Below are positions 545 through 64,000 of a stretch of 64,000 bases of DNA, one piece after another. How positions within the stretch are numbered: the stretch's first letter is position 1; each line of letters opens with the position of its first letter. Source of the stretch: an uncultured Eubacteriales bacterium (GTDB taxonomy: Bacteria > Bacillota_I > Bacilli_A > RFN20 > UBA1709); contig CAYIYR010000001.1 of assembly GCA_964367815.1 (NCBI GenBank), forward strand, positions 5,831 through 69,830, in the 5' to 3' direction. The translations under genes and the position numbers were made by a program. The notes under the pieces are model-generated. The model saw nothing but the letters and a program-made list of their open reading frames with translations. It was not told the DNA's origin and searched no databases.

Positions 545-560
545 GAAGGAGTTGAGAAAA

Positions 561-3107
561 ATGCCAGAAAACAAAGAGCTTGATCACAGAAATGAAAAAT
601 TCGATTCTGATGTTGATGTAGATAGAACAAAAGACGTTAACCTCAGTAACGAGATGAGAACTTCTTTCTTGGATTACTCAATGTCCGTTATTGTTTCTCG
701 TGCTTTACCTGATATCAGAGATGGTTTTAAGCCGGTTCATAGAAGAATTGTTTATGCAATGAATAACCTAGGGATGACCAGTGGTTATCCTCACAAGAAA
801 TCAGCCCGTATCGTTGGTGAAGTTATTGGTAAATATCACCCTCATGGTGATACCGCAGTCTATGATGCGATGGTTAGATTAGCTCAAGACTTCTCCTGCC
901 GTTATCCTTTGGTTGACGGTCATGGTAACTTTGGATCTGTTGATGGCGACCAAGCGGCCGCTATGAGATATACCGAAGCAAGATTATCAAAAATTGCTAA
1001 CGAACTCGTTAGAGACATAAATAAAGATACTGTTGATTTTATTCCCAACTATGATGGCGAAGAAGAAGAGCCAGTAGTTCTACCGTGTCGAATTCCTAAC
1101 CTCCTAATTAATGGGTCTACAGGTATTGCGGTTGGTATGGCAACAAACATTCCACCCCATAACCTCTCAGAAGTTATTGATGCAACCTTAGCGGTTGCGG
1201 AGAACCCAGATATTTCAGTAACAGATTTAATGAACAACTATTTGCCAGGACCAGATTTTCCTACTGCGGGTATTATTCTTGGCAAGTCCGGTATTAGAAA
1301 AGCTTATGAGACCGGAAGCGGCATCATAGTTTTACGCTCCCGCACTTCAATTGAAGACGATCCTCATCATGCGGGCAGAAAGATCATTGTTGTCACTGAA
1401 ATTCCTTATCAAGTTAATAAGAGTGTCATGATTGAAAGAATCGCTGATCTTGTTAAGAACAAAATCATCGAAGGCATTCACGACATCCGCGATGAATCTA
1501 ACAGAGAAGGTATTAGAGTAATTATTGAATTAAAGAAAGAAGCAATTCCTGAAGTAATTCTCAATCAACTCTTCAAATTCTCCTCTCTGCAAGTAGGATA
1601 TAGTATTAATTTATTAGCAATCTATGATGGGCAGCCAAAGATTTTCCCTGTTAAGGAAATCTTAACCCATTACATGGATCATCAAATTAATGTTGTTAGA
1701 AGAAAGACAAAATTTGATTTAGATAGAGCTATCGAAAGAGAACACATTCTAGAGGGTTTAAAGATTGCGGGTCAACACATTGATGAAGTCATTGAATTAA
1801 TCAAAAAGAGCAAGTCTCCCGAAGAAGCTCAAGCTAGTTTGATTTCCACTTTCAATTTAAGTGACAAACAAGCGAAAGCAATCTTGGATATGAAACTCCA
1901 GAGATTGACCGGAATTGAACAAGATAAGATTGAAGCTGAAATTACCGATCTCAACGCTAAGATAACTGATTACAAAGATATTCTTGCTAATCAGCACCGG
2001 GTCATTGAAGTTATTAAAGAAGACATGAATGACATAAAAGCCAGATATGGTGATTCTAGAAGAACAGAGATTTCTAATGAATCAGCATCCTTAGAAGATG
2101 AGGATTTAATTCCAGAAGAAGATGTCATCTTTACACTTACCTCCAATGGTTATGTTAAGAGAGTTACTGTTGATACCTATCGTTCGCAAAAACGTGGCGG
2201 TCGTGGTGTCAAGGGTATTACTACCCATGATGATGATGTAGTAGACAAGCTTCTATTCGCCTCTACTCACACCGACATTCTCTTCTTTACAAATTATGGA
2301 AAGGTTTATCGGATTAGGGGATATCAGATTCCGGAATTCTCTCGCCAAGGTAAAGGCATACCAGTAGTCAATTTATTACAACTTGCCAAAGATGAAAAGG
2401 TAAAAACTATTATTGATGTTGATGCCTATGATGAAGAACATAGTTTAGTGTTTGTCACCAAAGAAGGCGTAATAAAGAGAGTTGCTCTCAGCCAATTTGA
2501 AAACATCAATCGCAATGGAAAGATTGCGGTCGGATTAAAAGAGGGCGACGAGCTATTCGATGTTAAAAAGACAACTGGTGATGAAAACATTTACATCGCT
2601 TCCAGTGGCGGCAAAGTCTGTCGCTTCCACGAAGATGGTGTTAGAAGAATGGGACGTACAGCTGCTGGTGTTAGAGGTATTACCTTAAACGAAAGCAAAA
2701 AAGTTGTTGGCGTAACCACTTCAAATGAAGGCAAATTGATTTTAGTTATTACGAGTAAAGGCTATGGTAAAATGTCAGATCGTGAAGAATACCGCTTAAC
2801 CAGTCGTGGCGGCAAAGGAGTCTACACTCTAAATGCCACCGAAAAGAATGGTGAGCTAGTAGCTATGCGCGCCGTAGAGGGCGATGAAGATTTATTAATC
2901 ACAACCTCTAAAGGCGTTATCATTAGAACTCCGCTTGCAAGCGTTAAGATTGCCGGTAGACATACTCAAGGCGTAAAAGTTATTAAAGTTGAAGATGGGC
3001 AAGAAGTTGCCTCAATCGCCATTGCTCCTCACCAAGATGAGGAAGAAATAGCAGAAGAGGTTTCAGCAGAAACACCTTCTAATGAAGTAAATACAACCGA
3101 AGAATAG
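561..3107 (+). CDS. gyrA: DNA gyrase subunit A
   Basis: The 848-aa product has the classic GyrA N-terminus ([26 protein letters not shown], active-site [10 protein letters not shown]) and C-terminal beta-pinwheel repeats. RBS GGAAGGAG at 545-552 precedes the ATG at 561. The tracked ORF starts at an in-frame TTG at 552. Confidence 0.95.
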
Positions 3108-3132
3108 GGCGGCATTAGCCGCCTTTCTTCTT
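3107..3132 (+). terminator. rho-independent terminator after gyrA
   Basis: GC hairpin GGGCGGCATTAGCCGCC is followed by a TTTCTTCTTCT run. Confidence 0.6.
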
Positions 3133-3134
3133 CT

Positions 3135-3163
3135 ATTGATTTTGTCTAATTTGGGTGGTAAGA
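3135..3163 (+). promoter_or_regulatory. putative sigma-A promoter of the serS leader
   Basis: TTGATT (3135-3140), a 17-nt spacer, then TAAGAT (3158-3163). Confidence 0.4.
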
Positions 3164-3169
3164 TATGAT

Positions 3170-3395
3170 TAAATCGTTGATTGAGAGTAGTAATCTTCTT
3201 TCTCTTTCTAGAGATCTGCTGGCTGGTGCAAAGCAGAAAAGAGAAGTCGATGAATCCACTCAAGAGAGAAATAGTATACTATTTCCGGTAGAAACCGTTA
3301 TCACAAAAGAGACAATGTTTCACGTGAAACATTGTAAGAAGGGTGGCACCGCGGGAAACCGTCCCTTTGCGGAGGCACTTTTTTTATTGTTTAGG
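3170..3395 (+). promoter_or_regulatory. T-box riboswitch leader (seryl specifier UCC) controlling serS
   Basis: Stem I has GA/K-turn-like strands (TTGAGAGTAG ... CTCAAGAGAG). A candidate specifier loop AAUCCAC has UCC at 3254-3256 followed by the conserved purine. A perfect palindrome hairpin at 3313-3334 sits in the Stem III position. The canonical T-box sequence AAGGGTGGCACCGCG is at 3340-3355. An overlapping terminator hairpin plus T7 run (3352-3386) ends just before the serS RBS. Confidence 0.8.
3316..3331. promoter_or_regulatory. perfect parS consensus site (TGTTTCACGTGAAACA)
   Basis: This is an exact 16/16 match to the Firmicute Spo0J/ParB-binding parS palindrome. It lies inside the serS leader, where it forms T-box Stem III. 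Confidence 0.6.
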
Positions 3396-3406
3396 AGGAA
3401 AAAAGC

Positions 3407-4699
3407 ATGATAGACATTAAACTTTTGAGAGACAATCCAGACGTCGTAAAGGAAAACATTAAGAAAAAATTCCAAGATAGTAAATTACCACTAGTTGATG
3501 AGGTGATTGAACTAGATAAAAAACTACGGCAAATCAAGGTAGAAATAGATGATTTGCGTAGCGAACGTAACCGCGTCAGCAAATCAATCGGGGCGTTAAT
3601 GGGCCAAAAAAAGAGTGAAGAAGCTAACGCCAGCAAACAAAGAGTTGTTGACATTAACAACGCTTTAATCAAGCTTGAAGAGGACGCTGAAAGAATTGAG
3701 AATAGGGTAAGAGAGATCATGCTAGTTATTCCTAATATCATTGATCCAACCGTTCCTGTGGGAAAAGACGATTCAGAGAACGTGGAAATCGAAAGGTTCC
3801 TTGAACCTAAAGTTCCTGACTACGCTATCCCCTATCACCTTGATATCATCGAAAGAGTTGGCGGCATAGATTTAGATAGCGCAAGAAGAGTTGCTGGTAA
3901 TGGCTTTTATTATTTAATGGGTGATATCGCTAGACTTCACTCTGCGGTTTTAAGTTATGCTAGAGATTTCATGATTGATAAAGGTTTTACTTATGTTATC
4001 CCACCATACATGATTAGAAGCGATGTTGTAACCGGAGTTATGAGTTTTGCGGAAATGGATGCGATGATGTATAAAATTGAAGGCGAAGATCTTTATTTAA
4101 TCGGCACTAGCGAACACTCCATGATTGGCAAGTTTATCGGTCAACTATTGAACAAAGAAGATTTACCTTACACCTATACCAGTTATTCTCCTTGTTTTAG
4201 AAAAGAAAAAGGCGCTCACGGAATAGAAGAAAGAGGAGTATATCGGATTCATCAATTTGAAAAGCAAGAAATGATAATTGTGTGTGAACCAGAAGATTCA
4301 AAAGCTTGGTTTGAAAAACTATATCACTTCACTGTTGAATTATTTACTAGCATGAAGATTCCAGTAAGAACTTTAGAATGTTGCAGTGGTGATCTAGCAG
4401 ATTTGAAAGTTAAAAGCATTGATGTCGAAGCCTGGAGTCCACGGCAGCAGAAGTATTTTGAGGTTGGCAGTTGCTCCAATCTCGGCGATGCTCAAGCCAG
4501 AAGACTCGGAATTAGAATCAAAGATGAGAACAAAAACTATTTTGCCCACACCTTGAATAATACCGTTGTTGCGCCACCAAGAATGTTGATTGCAATCTTA
4601 GAAAATCATCTTAACGCCGATGGATCAATTAATATCCCAGAAGTTCTCCAGCCATACATGGGTGGAAAGAAAAAAATCGACGTTGTAACCAAGAAATAA
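3407..4699 (+). CDS. serS: seryl-tRNA synthetase
   Basis: The 430-aa product has an N-terminal coiled-coil tRNA-binding arm (MIDIKLLRDNPDVV...) and class II aaRS core motifs. RBS AGGAGGAAAAAAGC precedes the ATG. Confidence 0.95.
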   Translation: MIDIKLLRDNPDVVKENIKKKFQDSKLPLVDEVIELDKKLRQIKVEIDDLRSERNRVSKSIGALMGQKKSEEANASKQRVVDINNALIKLEEDAERIENRVREIMLVIPNIIDPTVPVGKDDSENVEIERFLEPKVPDYAIPYHLDIIERVGGIDLDSARRVAGNGFYYLMGDIARLHSAVLSYARDFMIDKGFTYVIPPYMIRSDVVTGVMSFAEMDAMMYKIEGEDLYLIGTSEHSMIGKFIGQLLNKEDLPYTYTSYSPCFRKEKGAHGIEERGVYRIHQFEKQEMIIVCEPEDSKAWFEKLYHFTVELFTSMKIPVRTLECCSGDLADLKVKSIDVEAWSPRQQKYFEVGSCSNLGDAQARRLGIRIKDENKNYFAHTLNNTVVAPPRMLIAILENHLNADGSINIPEVLQPYMGGKKKIDVVTKK

Positions 4700-4868: not shown

Positions 4869-5402
4869 ATGTTTAGAGAAATACTCACAAAAGCCGTAGT
4901 AGGAAAAGGAAGAAAGAGCAGCATAACCATTCACGAGATTCTTCCCGAGAAAGCTGCAAGTCGAACTTTGGGATGTTGGATAATTAATAGTCATGCAACT
5001 CCTTATGTAAAATCAGATGAGACAATTGAAGTGGAAGGCACTTACGATATTCATATTTGGTATGGGTGTGGCGAAGACCAAGACACAGAAATTATTAAAC
5101 GCACCATCGATTATAAAGAACTCATCCCATTCAAAATAAAGCCGGGCGAAAGATTAGGAATGAATAATGATCTAAAAGCGTTCTTTGTGAAATATCCAGT
5201 TTGCACAGGACTCAAACTACTAGAAAACGGGAAAATCGAAGTAGTAGTCGAAAAAGAATTGGTTGTAGATGCGGTAGGCGAAACAAAGCTTAAAGTTCAA
5301 GTGACTCAAGGCGAAGAAGAATGGATTTTAGATGGGGAGATTGAAGCGAGTATTGATCCTGATTATGTGATAAAGGACAGCCACCAACCAACGATATTAT
5401 AA
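4869..5402 (+). CDS. cotE: spore coat morphogenetic protein CotE homolog
   Basis: The 177-aa product's N-terminus (REILTKAVVGKGRKSSITIHEILPEKAASRTLGCWIINSHAT...EVEGTYDIHIWY) closely parallels B. subtilis CotE (EIITKAVVAKGRKF...). Its acidic C-terminus matches too. Its position immediately upstream of mutS-mutL is the same as in B. subtilis. Confidence 0.8.
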   Translation: MFREILTKAVVGKGRKSSITIHEILPEKAASRTLGCWIINSHATPYVKSDETIEVEGTYDIHIWYGCGEDQDTEIIKRTIDYKELIPFKIKPGERLGMNNDLKAFFVKYPVCTGLKLLENGKIEVVVEKELVVDAVGETKLKVQVTQGEEEWILDGEIEASIDPDYVIKDSHQPTIL

Positions 5403-9781: not shown

Positions 9782-10693
9782 ATGGATAAGGTATTAGTTA
9801 TTTGTGGTCCTACTTGTGTGGGTAAAACAAGTCTTTCAATTAATCTTGCCAAAGCCCTTAACGGAGAAATAATTAATGGTGATTCAATGCAAGTTTATAA
9901 AGAAATGAATGTTGGAACAGCCAAAATAAGTGAGAAAGAGAAAGAAGGCATCGCTCATCACCTGTTTGATATTAAAAATATACAACAGAGTTTTAGTGTT
10001 GCAGAATTTCAGAAACTAATCCGCCAAACTATTTCAGAAACCACTGAGAAGCATAAACTTCCAATTATTGTTGGGGGAACAGGTCTTTATTTAAAGGCCG
10101 GACTATATGACTACTTGTTTCAAGAGAATCAACCCACCGATTACAAATTAGATGTTAAAACCACCGAAGAGTTATATCTTCAATTGCAAGAACTTGATGA
10201 AAAGACCGCCCTCACCATTCATCCCAATAACCGTAAGAGAATAATTCGTGCCATTGAATTGTTCTATGAGACAGGAGTGGGCAAAGAAGGGCTTAATAAA
10301 TTACAAGAACATAAGCCATTATACGATGTTATCTATATCGGATTAACTAGACCACGCTCAGAACTGTACACGCTTATTGATGAAAGAGTAGACAAAATGA
10401 TGAGTCAAGGCTTGGAACAAGAAGCCAGATATGTATTGACTAATGCTTCTGCAAATTCAACCGCATTGCAAGCGATTGGATATAAAGAATTCAGATCTTA
10501 TCTAGAGGGAAATTCTACCTTAGAAGAAGTGGCGGCAGCCATCAAAAGTAACACGCATAAATTTGCTAAACGTCAATATACCTGGTTCAATCATCAGATG
10601 GATGTTAAATGGATAGATGTGCAGAACAAAACCATTGAGCAAATTGAAAAAGAAGCTTTGACTATTATTGAAAGCGGGTGGAATAATGGATGA
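9782..10693 (+). CDS. miaA: tRNA dimethylallyltransferase
   Basis: The 303-aa product has the P-loop VICGPTCVGKTSLSINLA and the GDSMQVYK motif. The ATG is 2 nt after the mutL stop. Confidence 0.95.
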   Translation: MDKVLVICGPTCVGKTSLSINLAKALNGEIINGDSMQVYKEMNVGTAKISEKEKEGIAHHLFDIKNIQQSFSVAEFQKLIRQTISETTEKHKLPIIVGGTGLYLKAGLYDYLFQENQPTDYKLDVKTTEELYLQLQELDEKTALTIHPNNRKRIIRAIELFYETGVGKEGLNKLQEHKPLYDVIYIGLTRPRSELYTLIDERVDKMMSQGLEQEARYVLTNASANSTALQAIGYKEFRSYLEGNSTLEEVAAAIKSNTHKFAKRQYTWFNHQMDVKWIDVQNKTIEQIEKEALTIIESGWNNG

Positions 10694-63310: not shown

Positions 63311-64000
63311 TTATTTTTTATCGCCAATCAATTTGCTTAAAATCTCTTTTAGTTCTTCTGGAGAATTATATTGAATCTTTATGGCATTTTTGGATACAAC
63401 GACTTTTGTATTTAATTTCTCTTCGAGACGCTTTTCTTTTTTTACTTTCTTACTACGAGTTTTCTTCTTCGAAGACTTCATAGATTGAACTAATTCTTCC
63501 GCTTCTCTAACATTCATGTTTTCGCTCTTAATCCTATCAATATAGGTTAGGGCATCTTTCTCACTTAGACCAACCAAGGTTCTAACATGGCCAACGCTAA
63601 GATGATGTTTTTCTAATTCGCTTTGAACCGAATTTGGTAATTGTCTTAGGCGAAGAATGTTTGCGATATAAGAACGGGATTTACCAACTTTTTGTGCTAA
63701 CTGTTGTTGGGTTAGGCCATAGTTACGTTGCATATCGGCATAAGCTTTTGCTTCTTCTAAAGCACTTAAGTTTTCTCTTTGAATGTTTTCAATCAACGCA
63801 ATTTCGCTCATTTGTTGATCATCAAAATGTTCAATAATTGCCGGGATATCTTTCATTCCCGCTAGTTTGGAAGCTCTATAACGGCGCTCACCAGCGACTA
63901 TTTCGTATTTTCCTTGGATATAACGAACAAGAATTGGAGTGAATACACCATGTTCTTTAATCGAGTCAGCTAATTCGGCCAATCTTTGCGGATCAAAGGT
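63311..64000 (-). CDS. parB: ParB/Spo0J-family partition protein (5' end of the gene is outside the window)
   Basis: The product has the ParB box and HTH (GERRYRASKLAGMKDIPAII...SQQQLAQKVGKSRSYIANILRL) and a C-terminal basic tail. The frame stays open to the window edge. It cannot be told apart from Noc on this fragment alone. Confidence 0.85.
   Translation of the reverse strand, partial: TFDPQRLAELADSIKEHGVFTPILVRYIQGKYEIVAGERRYRASKLAGMKDIPAIIEHFDDQQMSEIALIENIQRENLSALEEAKAYADMQRNYGLTQQQLAQKVGKSRSYIANILRLRQLPNSVQSELEKHHLSVGHVRTLVGLSEKDALTYIDRIKSENMNVREAEELVQSMKSSKKKTRSKKVKKEKRLEEKLNTKVVVSKNAIKIQYNSPEELKEILSKLIGDKK

Follow-up and report, generated by a model that had tools for sequence, protein, structure and literature searches.

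We consider it likely, from sequence comparison, that a 64,000-nucleotide stretch of DNA from an uncultured bacterium (hereafter the window, analyzed at its full length) holds a genuine origin-proximal parS site at positions 3316-3331, and that this site is housed in Stem III, the sequence-free stem, of the serS T-box riboswitch. A sequence-only reading had proposed that the same letters act as a parS site at the DNA level and form Stem III in the transcript. Comparison with related loci supported this proposal, ParB binding to the site being putative.

The parS core and the T-box leader of serS

The core TGTTTCACGTGAAACA at 3316-3331 (no strand assigned) matched parS at 16 of 16 positions with no mismatch, as had been claimed. 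It was annotated as a putative ParB nucleation site on the basis of this match and of its conservation in serS leaders, and it agreed with the parS pattern tGTTNCACGTGAAACa as an inverted repeat of 16 bp. It was the sole parS with two or fewer mismatches within the 64-kb window. Calculated with the base composition of the window, about 2.5e-5 exact matches are expected per 64 kb, in line with the earlier estimate of about 3e-5. The next-best matches, at 10116, 27788 and 60144, had three mismatches each. Dinucleotide shuffles gave 0.43 matches at three or fewer mismatches, as opposed to these three observed sites, which we rejected as parS candidates; they are intragenic and their number is near the chance expectation. 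The perfect palindrome around the core, ACAATGTTTCACGTGAAACATTGT, extends over 24 nt (3312-3335) rather than the 22 bp originally given.

The T-box leader (RF00230) was the only Rfam family found in the window. It occupies 3168-3369 on the + strand and comprises Stem I, the specifier loop, Stem II/IIA-B, Stem III and the antiterminator. The match scored 127.2 bits (gathering score, 93; E value, 7e-28) and covered the full model (1-219). The Rfam alignment assigned 3312-3335 to the pairs that form Stem III in the model, and the T-box sequence AAGGGTGGCACCGCG was located at 3339-3353, 3 nt beyond the palindrome; both the Stem III position and the location immediately 5' of the T-box sequence that had been assigned to the palindrome were thus borne out. 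Ahead of the leader, a terminator-like hairpin with an 8-bp GC-rich stem and a T-rich tail (3106-3125, +) would end the gyrA transcript. A promoter-like region follows at 3136-3169 (+), in which a consensus scan and direct reading gave TTGATT-17-TAAGAT or TTGTCT-16-TATGAT, and we infer that this region, which borders the Rfam model start (3168) on its 5' side, is the promoter of the serS leader.

On its 3' side, the specifier loop has the sequence GAA-UCC-A (3252-3258), in which the sequence and the Rfam alignment identify the serine specifier codon UCC (3255-3257, +) followed by the conserved purine A3258. A serine codon fits the downstream serS, and related leaders carry UCC, UCU or UCA at the specifier position. 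In T-boxes, the stem and loop of Stem III are normally variable and free in sequence, Stem III is reported to be indispensable, and its flanks are defined by the arrangement 5'-RRRxG-Stem III-AA-3' (PMC7583486). The window showed this arrangement, with the purine string AAGAG at 3307-3311 (+) as the RRRxG motif, a Stem III hairpin of 10 bp with an ACGU tetraloop at 3312-3335 (+) in the Rfam alignment, and AA at 3336-3337. Folded as RNA, 3312-3335 had a minimum free energy (MFE) of -10.2 kcal/mol (z = -3.9).

The MFE fold of 3303-3369 contained a predicted antiterminator at 3338-3368 (+) with the published architecture (PMC7583486). Helix A1 pairs 3338-3343 with 3363-3368, helix A2 pairs 3351-3354 with 3359-3362 and has a G-U pair at its base, and the 7-nt T-box bulge UGGCACC occupies 3344-3350. 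The first four bases of the bulge, UGGC, are complementary to a tRNA 3' end reading GCCA; no tRNA genes were found in the window. A competing intrinsic terminator at 3342-3385 (+), consisting of a stem and a U7 tract (3379-3385), appeared in the fold of 3336-3390 with -22.3 kcal/mol, and the antiterminator and terminator folds are mutually exclusive. Given the full Rfam match, the serine specifier, the Stem III flanks and the alternative folds with U7, the riboswitch looks intact, with parS as its Stem III. The case for a working Stem III draws mainly on the model alignment, the reported indispensability of this stem and the intact rest of the leader.

Origin-proximal position and the ParB protein

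The window opens with the 3' end of gyrB (47-544), ahead of gyrA (552-3107, +; NCBIfam gyrA equivalog, 1192 bits), an origin-proximal marker. The end of gyrA lies 209 bp upstream of parS, in agreement with the roughly 200 bp stated before. Downstream of the leader is the regulated gene serS (3407-4699, +; NCBIfam serS equivalog, 418.6 bits), with a ribosome-binding site AGGAGG at 3393-3398, followed by cotE, mutS, mutL and miaA. The dnaA start precedes serS by about 8.6 kb in L200 and L201, two syntenic relatives, and by synteny the parS of the window would be about 8.5 kb from dnaA. GC skew was positive across most of the window. The location in the origin-proximal domain, as proposed earlier, is thus supported by gyrB-gyrA directly upstream, by synteny and by GC skew. 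Because no other parS was found in the 21-kb L200 locus, and none with at most two mismatches in the window, the serS-leader parS may be the principal site on this origin flank.

A candidate partner of the site is encoded by parB at 63311-64000 (-), its N-terminus cut by the window end. The product contained the Pfam domains ParB_N, HTH_ParB and ParB_C and matched the NCBIfam parB_part model with 174 bits, while the Noc model stayed under its cutoff. The recognition helix region reads GKSRSYIANILRLRQ...GHVRT (motif GKSR...GHVR), with R, I, Q and G at the specificity positions equivalent to R173, I179, Q184 and G201. RxxG characterizes parS binders, as opposed to QKKR in Noc (PMC7383237). Judged by these residues, the partial ParB of the window is of the RxxG parS type and not of the Noc QKKR type.

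Two further features of this region were observed. The parB gene is not next to dnaA but is separated from the serS parS by about 60 kb, and rpmH-rnpA-yidC abut dnaA in L200 (1-1400), with no parAB there; the ORI gene cluster that is ancestral in Firmicutes (PMC8136486) therefore appears to be dislocated in the lineage of the window. In addition, a homologue of CotE (outer spore coat protein E) is encoded at 4869-5402, between serS and mutS, and none is present in the L200 lineage. The CotE homologue suggests that the uncultured Bacilli lineage of the window forms spores.

Recurrence and loss of the site in related genomes

A scan covering 185,579 species, each represented by one genome, looked for parS followed by a T-box motif, with the pattern TGTTNCACGTGNAACA, a gap of 0-25 nt and GGTGGNACCNCG. 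At least 119 matches were obtained, and 116 of those listed were serS leaders. The serS start lay 44-86 nt beyond the motif in 114 listed matches, and two further contigs stop short of the gene. Among the matches listed, the palindrome core was perfect in 112 of the 116 serS leaders, an invariance that arises partly by construction, since the scan demanded parS. The two positions left free in the pattern are unbiased, and they were T in 114 of 116 and A in 113 of 116 of the listed leaders (98% invariant), a stricter constraint than base pairing by itself would impose. Where gyrA was in the locus, its product was only 42-67% identical to the GyrA of the window in the matches listed. The listed carriers were mostly recorded as Erysipelotrichaceae, Solobacterium, Bulleidia and Erysipelothrix, the others being Galactobacillus, Anaerorhabdus, Lactimicrobium, Culicoidibacterales and unclassified Bacilli.

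The purine string, the T-box sequence, CGTCCC and the T-run were kept in 113 of 113 aligned leaders. On an Rfam rescan of serS leaders, eight of ten were above the gathering score, with L073 below it and L200 without a leader. T-boxes of other amino-acid classes did not occur among the matches listed, though the pattern could catch them, indicating that parS is associated with the origin-proximal serS locus and not with T-boxes generally. Conservation at the orthologous position, in at least 116 species and after deletion of the T-box, exceeded the neutral expectation. Three matches, in L037 (a Betaproteobacteria MAG), L045 and L062 (Agromyces), had no T-box by Rfam and no serS and were rejected as chance co-occurrence; those in L037 and L062 adjoin parB genes. 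As a separate observation, SerS was only 27-35% identical to that of the window in 17 loci with the same gyrA/parS/T-box leader (L011, L013, L022, L023, L056, L059, L074, L082-L084, L093, L095, L096, L098, L101, L103 and L113), compared with 57-82% in the others, which suggests that the coding gene was replaced in situ beneath a conserved leader.

For a sample chosen without regard to parS, we took the loci that encode nine of the nearest SerS relatives (77-87% identity, L200-L208). Three of these loci, L200, L201 and L203, which represent the lineage closest to the window, showed the gene order of the window (dnaA-dnaN-yaaA-recF-gyrB-gyrA-serS-mutS-mutL-miaA-thiF-DUF1576), and their SerS proteins were 83-85% identical to its SerS. 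Their gyrA-serS spacer is only 33-35 nt long; the T-box is gone (Rfam rescan of L200) and a perfect parS is kept, as in TAA-AAGGT-TGTTTCACGTGAAACA-AAAGGAGAAATT-ATG. The spacers that hold parS are at 9968-10000 in L200 and 5966-6000 in L203. The survival of a perfect parS after T-box deletion argues that the DNA site is conserved in its own right, and among the comparisons made here we regard this retention as the strongest evidence for selection of the DNA site itself.

The other six loci of this sample have T-boxes. L202 carries parS in Stem III, whereas L204-L208 have five different Stem III sequences unrelated to parS, and no parS was found in these five loci over 10-13 kb. Stem III of L204 likewise consists of 10 bp and a tetraloop, and the unrelated sequences of similar shape in L204-L208 indicate that the T-box needs no parS sequence. 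Since parS is missing at serS in five of the nine nearest relatives, it is not indispensable there and can be lost or relocated. Unrelated Stem III sequences in relatives that keep their parS sites elsewhere had been named in advance as evidence against the proposal. Unrelated sequences were indeed found in these five loci, but L202 and at least 116 species share parS, and the comparison of serS leaders among relatives, in which parS was also kept without a T-box, favours dual use.

Additional parS sites were observed around serS. In 61 related loci among L001-L119, a second perfect parS lies 0-144 nt past the serS stop, so that serS is bracketed (for example, L116 at 4696, L068 at 4457, L036 and L112); the window has no such site after 4699. 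This second site sometimes abuts the stop codon and is sometimes extended to a terminator-like hairpin with a T-run (L036, L112 and L015). In L073, L077 and L109, it precedes the SRP RNA gene (RF00169) by 35-47 nt, with parS and SRP RNA at 2567 and 2618-2704, 5004 and 5051-5138, and 5098 and 4961-5056 (-), respectively. In L046, L070, L071 and L118, it is about 10 nt upstream of a promoter-like pair TTGnnn-17-TATAAT.

Another clade was represented by 80 metagenome loci of SerS relatives (L120-L199, 73-77% identity), and none of these 80 loci had a T-box at serS. In this clade, parB is directly upstream of serS and parS clusters are present. At 2766-2781 of L132, the parS variant TGTTCCACGTGGAACA shares bases with the stop codon of parB, 25 nt ahead of the serS ATG, and the adjacency of parS and serS thus recurs independently of the riboswitch. 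In L170 (2108-2284; also in L179 and L151), three TGTTTCATGTGAAACA sites with a CATG centre are spaced by exactly 38 nt. A single TGTTTCACGTGAAACC comes next, close to the 5' side of a promoter-like TTGTTGTATAAT box, with a ParB-family gene on either side.

Two probable roles for one sequence, alternatives and known systems

Judging from the ParB family, dimers of the ParB encoded at the window end would recognise the two parS half-sites, bind CTP, close into sliding clamps and spread across the gyrA-serS region, where they would organise the origin domain and recruit SMC. Transcription of the leader would start at about 3170, and, according to the Rfam alignment and the fold, the parS bases with four flanking pairs would form the 10-bp tetraloop Stem III in the RNA. 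The purines AAGAG and AA on its two sides would buttress the antiterminator once uncharged tRNA-Ser reads the UCC specifier, and without uncharged tRNA-Ser the terminator at 3342-3385 would form. The two roles can coexist because Stem III needs shape and not sequence, and the parS inverted repeat folds as a hairpin in RNA. Regulatory coupling between the DNA and RNA roles is not required.

It is unlikely that the two roles also affect each other, with ParB as a roadblock or pause for polymerase just ahead of the antiterminator/terminator decision, or with leader transcription modulating ParB loading, so that serS would be tied to the segregation status of the origin. Such cross-talk would fit the position of parS 8-23 bp upstream of the T-box sequence within the transcribed leader, the persistence of the parS-serS association, the second parS after serS in 61 related loci among the matches listed, and the overlap with the parB stop codon 25 nt ahead of serS in the unrelated clade. 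Precedents are comCDE in Streptococcus pneumoniae (PMC4488948) and PA0011/PA0013 in Pseudomonas aeruginosa (PMC7022226). However, nothing in the sequence demands coupling, relatives work with parS minus the T-box or with the T-box minus parS, and ParB binding was without general effect on gene expression in S. pneumoniae (PMC4488948). Furthermore, polymerase passes parS irrespective of T-box termination, and the state of the riboswitch therefore cannot gate ParB loading at parS. We hold it to be quite improbable that polymerase is paused or blocked before the antiterminator by ParB, or by a ParB-CTP clamp, at the Stem III DNA, with origin segregation or ParB occupancy tuning tRNA-Ser sensing and with serS, which two parS sites bracket in many Erysipelotrichaceae, being cell-cycle-gated.

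A functional parS within a decaying, relic T-box, which would leave no real dual use in the window, is very unlikely. The sister lineage of L200, L201 and L203 is entirely without the T-box, as mentioned above, and would accord with such decay. However, the leader of the window scored 127 bits over the whole model and has the serine specifier, the purine string, the 7-nt bulge, the terminator and U7. The same motifs as noted for the 113 aligned leaders were kept in every one of them, and eight of ten rescanned serS leaders exceeded the Rfam gathering score.

Highly improbable, too, is the view that the 16-mer was kept for its RNA, for example for an RNA-binding factor, with its likeness to parS incidental and without ParB binding. 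The 16-mer in the leader is always transcribed, and the flanking bases covary so that pairing is preserved. Three pairs flanking the core covaried (U-A 43 and A-U 30 at ±1), and 0 of 500 shuffles reached the observed score. Similar complementarity at ±1 and ±2 was, however, seen at parS sites of these loci that lie outside T-boxes, and with this control the covariation was rejected as proof of RNA-level selection. Extension by at least three further contiguous pairs was seen at 68% of T-box sites versus 42% elsewhere (Fisher p = 1e-4). Flank covariation is thus weak evidence for RNA-level selection, of which the greater extension at T-box sites remains. Against a constraint on the RNA alone, the identical 16-mer survives loss of the T-box, it recurs past serS and elsewhere outside T-boxes within the same genomes, and it is the consensus ParB site across phyla (PMC4488948, PMC10197239), whereas T-boxes of close relatives carry unrelated Stem III sequences. 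Over all loaded loci, complementarity at ±1 and ±2 of parS was far above that of shuffles, with T-A and A-T alternating, which points to a general tendency of parS palindromes toward extension, via hairpin use or template-switch correction.

A perfect hairpin whose tetraloop is self-complementary always reads as a palindrome in DNA, but a Stem III that happens to spell parS by pure coincidence is scarcely credible and effectively refuted by the approximately 2.5e-5 exact matches expected per window, the overlap in at least 116 species and the retention of parS after T-box loss.

The preferred reading, an origin-proximal parS housed in Stem III, can be compared with known systems. The site has the same 16-bp consensus as chromosomal parS of Firmicutes (Bacillus subtilis Spo0J sites, TGTTNCACGTGAAACA; S. 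pneumoniae, tGTTTCACGtGAAACa), together with an origin-proximal position and a ParB with R173/G201-type residues. It differs from those sites in being apparently alone within about -8 to +60 kb of dnaA. The well-studied B. subtilis parS sites are mostly within protein-coding genes, whereas the parS of the window is a defined riboswitch helix. In B. subtilis, a parS lies within the spo0J coding sequence, likewise one DNA stretch under two unrelated constraints; in the window, the second code is RNA secondary structure and not codons. The Stem III flanks, the 7-nt bulge, the G-U pair of A2 and the terminator are all common to the window and the known T-box discriminator domain (Li et al. 2019; reviewed in PMC7583486). 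In contrast to that domain, the central 16 nt of Stem III in this clade are fixed to a protein-binding DNA motif.

The parS(-1.6°)/comCDE locus of S. pneumoniae and parS3/parS4 of P. aeruginosa (PA0011 and PA0013) resemble the window in having parS near a regulated unit. ParB affects neighbouring genes in these cases by spreading over or sitting on promoter regions (PMC4488948, PMC7022226), whereas the parS of the window lies inside a transcribed attenuator, and an effect on expression here is hypothetical. parS and Stem III are naturally matched, since transcription turns an inverted DNA repeat into an RNA hairpin. No relevant paper came up in full-text literature searches that combined parS with T-box or serS, used the 16-mer, or combined Erysipelotrich* with parS and ParB. 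parS and the T-box are each textbook elements, and a fusion of both was not found described.

For annotation, these data carry a warning: invariance of Stem III across the T-box alignments of this clade should not be equated with a requirement of the RNA. The arrangement provides a defined system for asking whether ParB complexes and transcription attenuation interfere, and it is experimentally accessible through cultured carriers, namely Erysipelothrix species, Bulleidia extructa and Lactimicrobium massiliense. It represents a widely conserved natural case of a short sequence with two unrelated codes, a DNA palindrome and a riboswitch helix, and shows a possible seat for a centromere-like site in a compact origin region.
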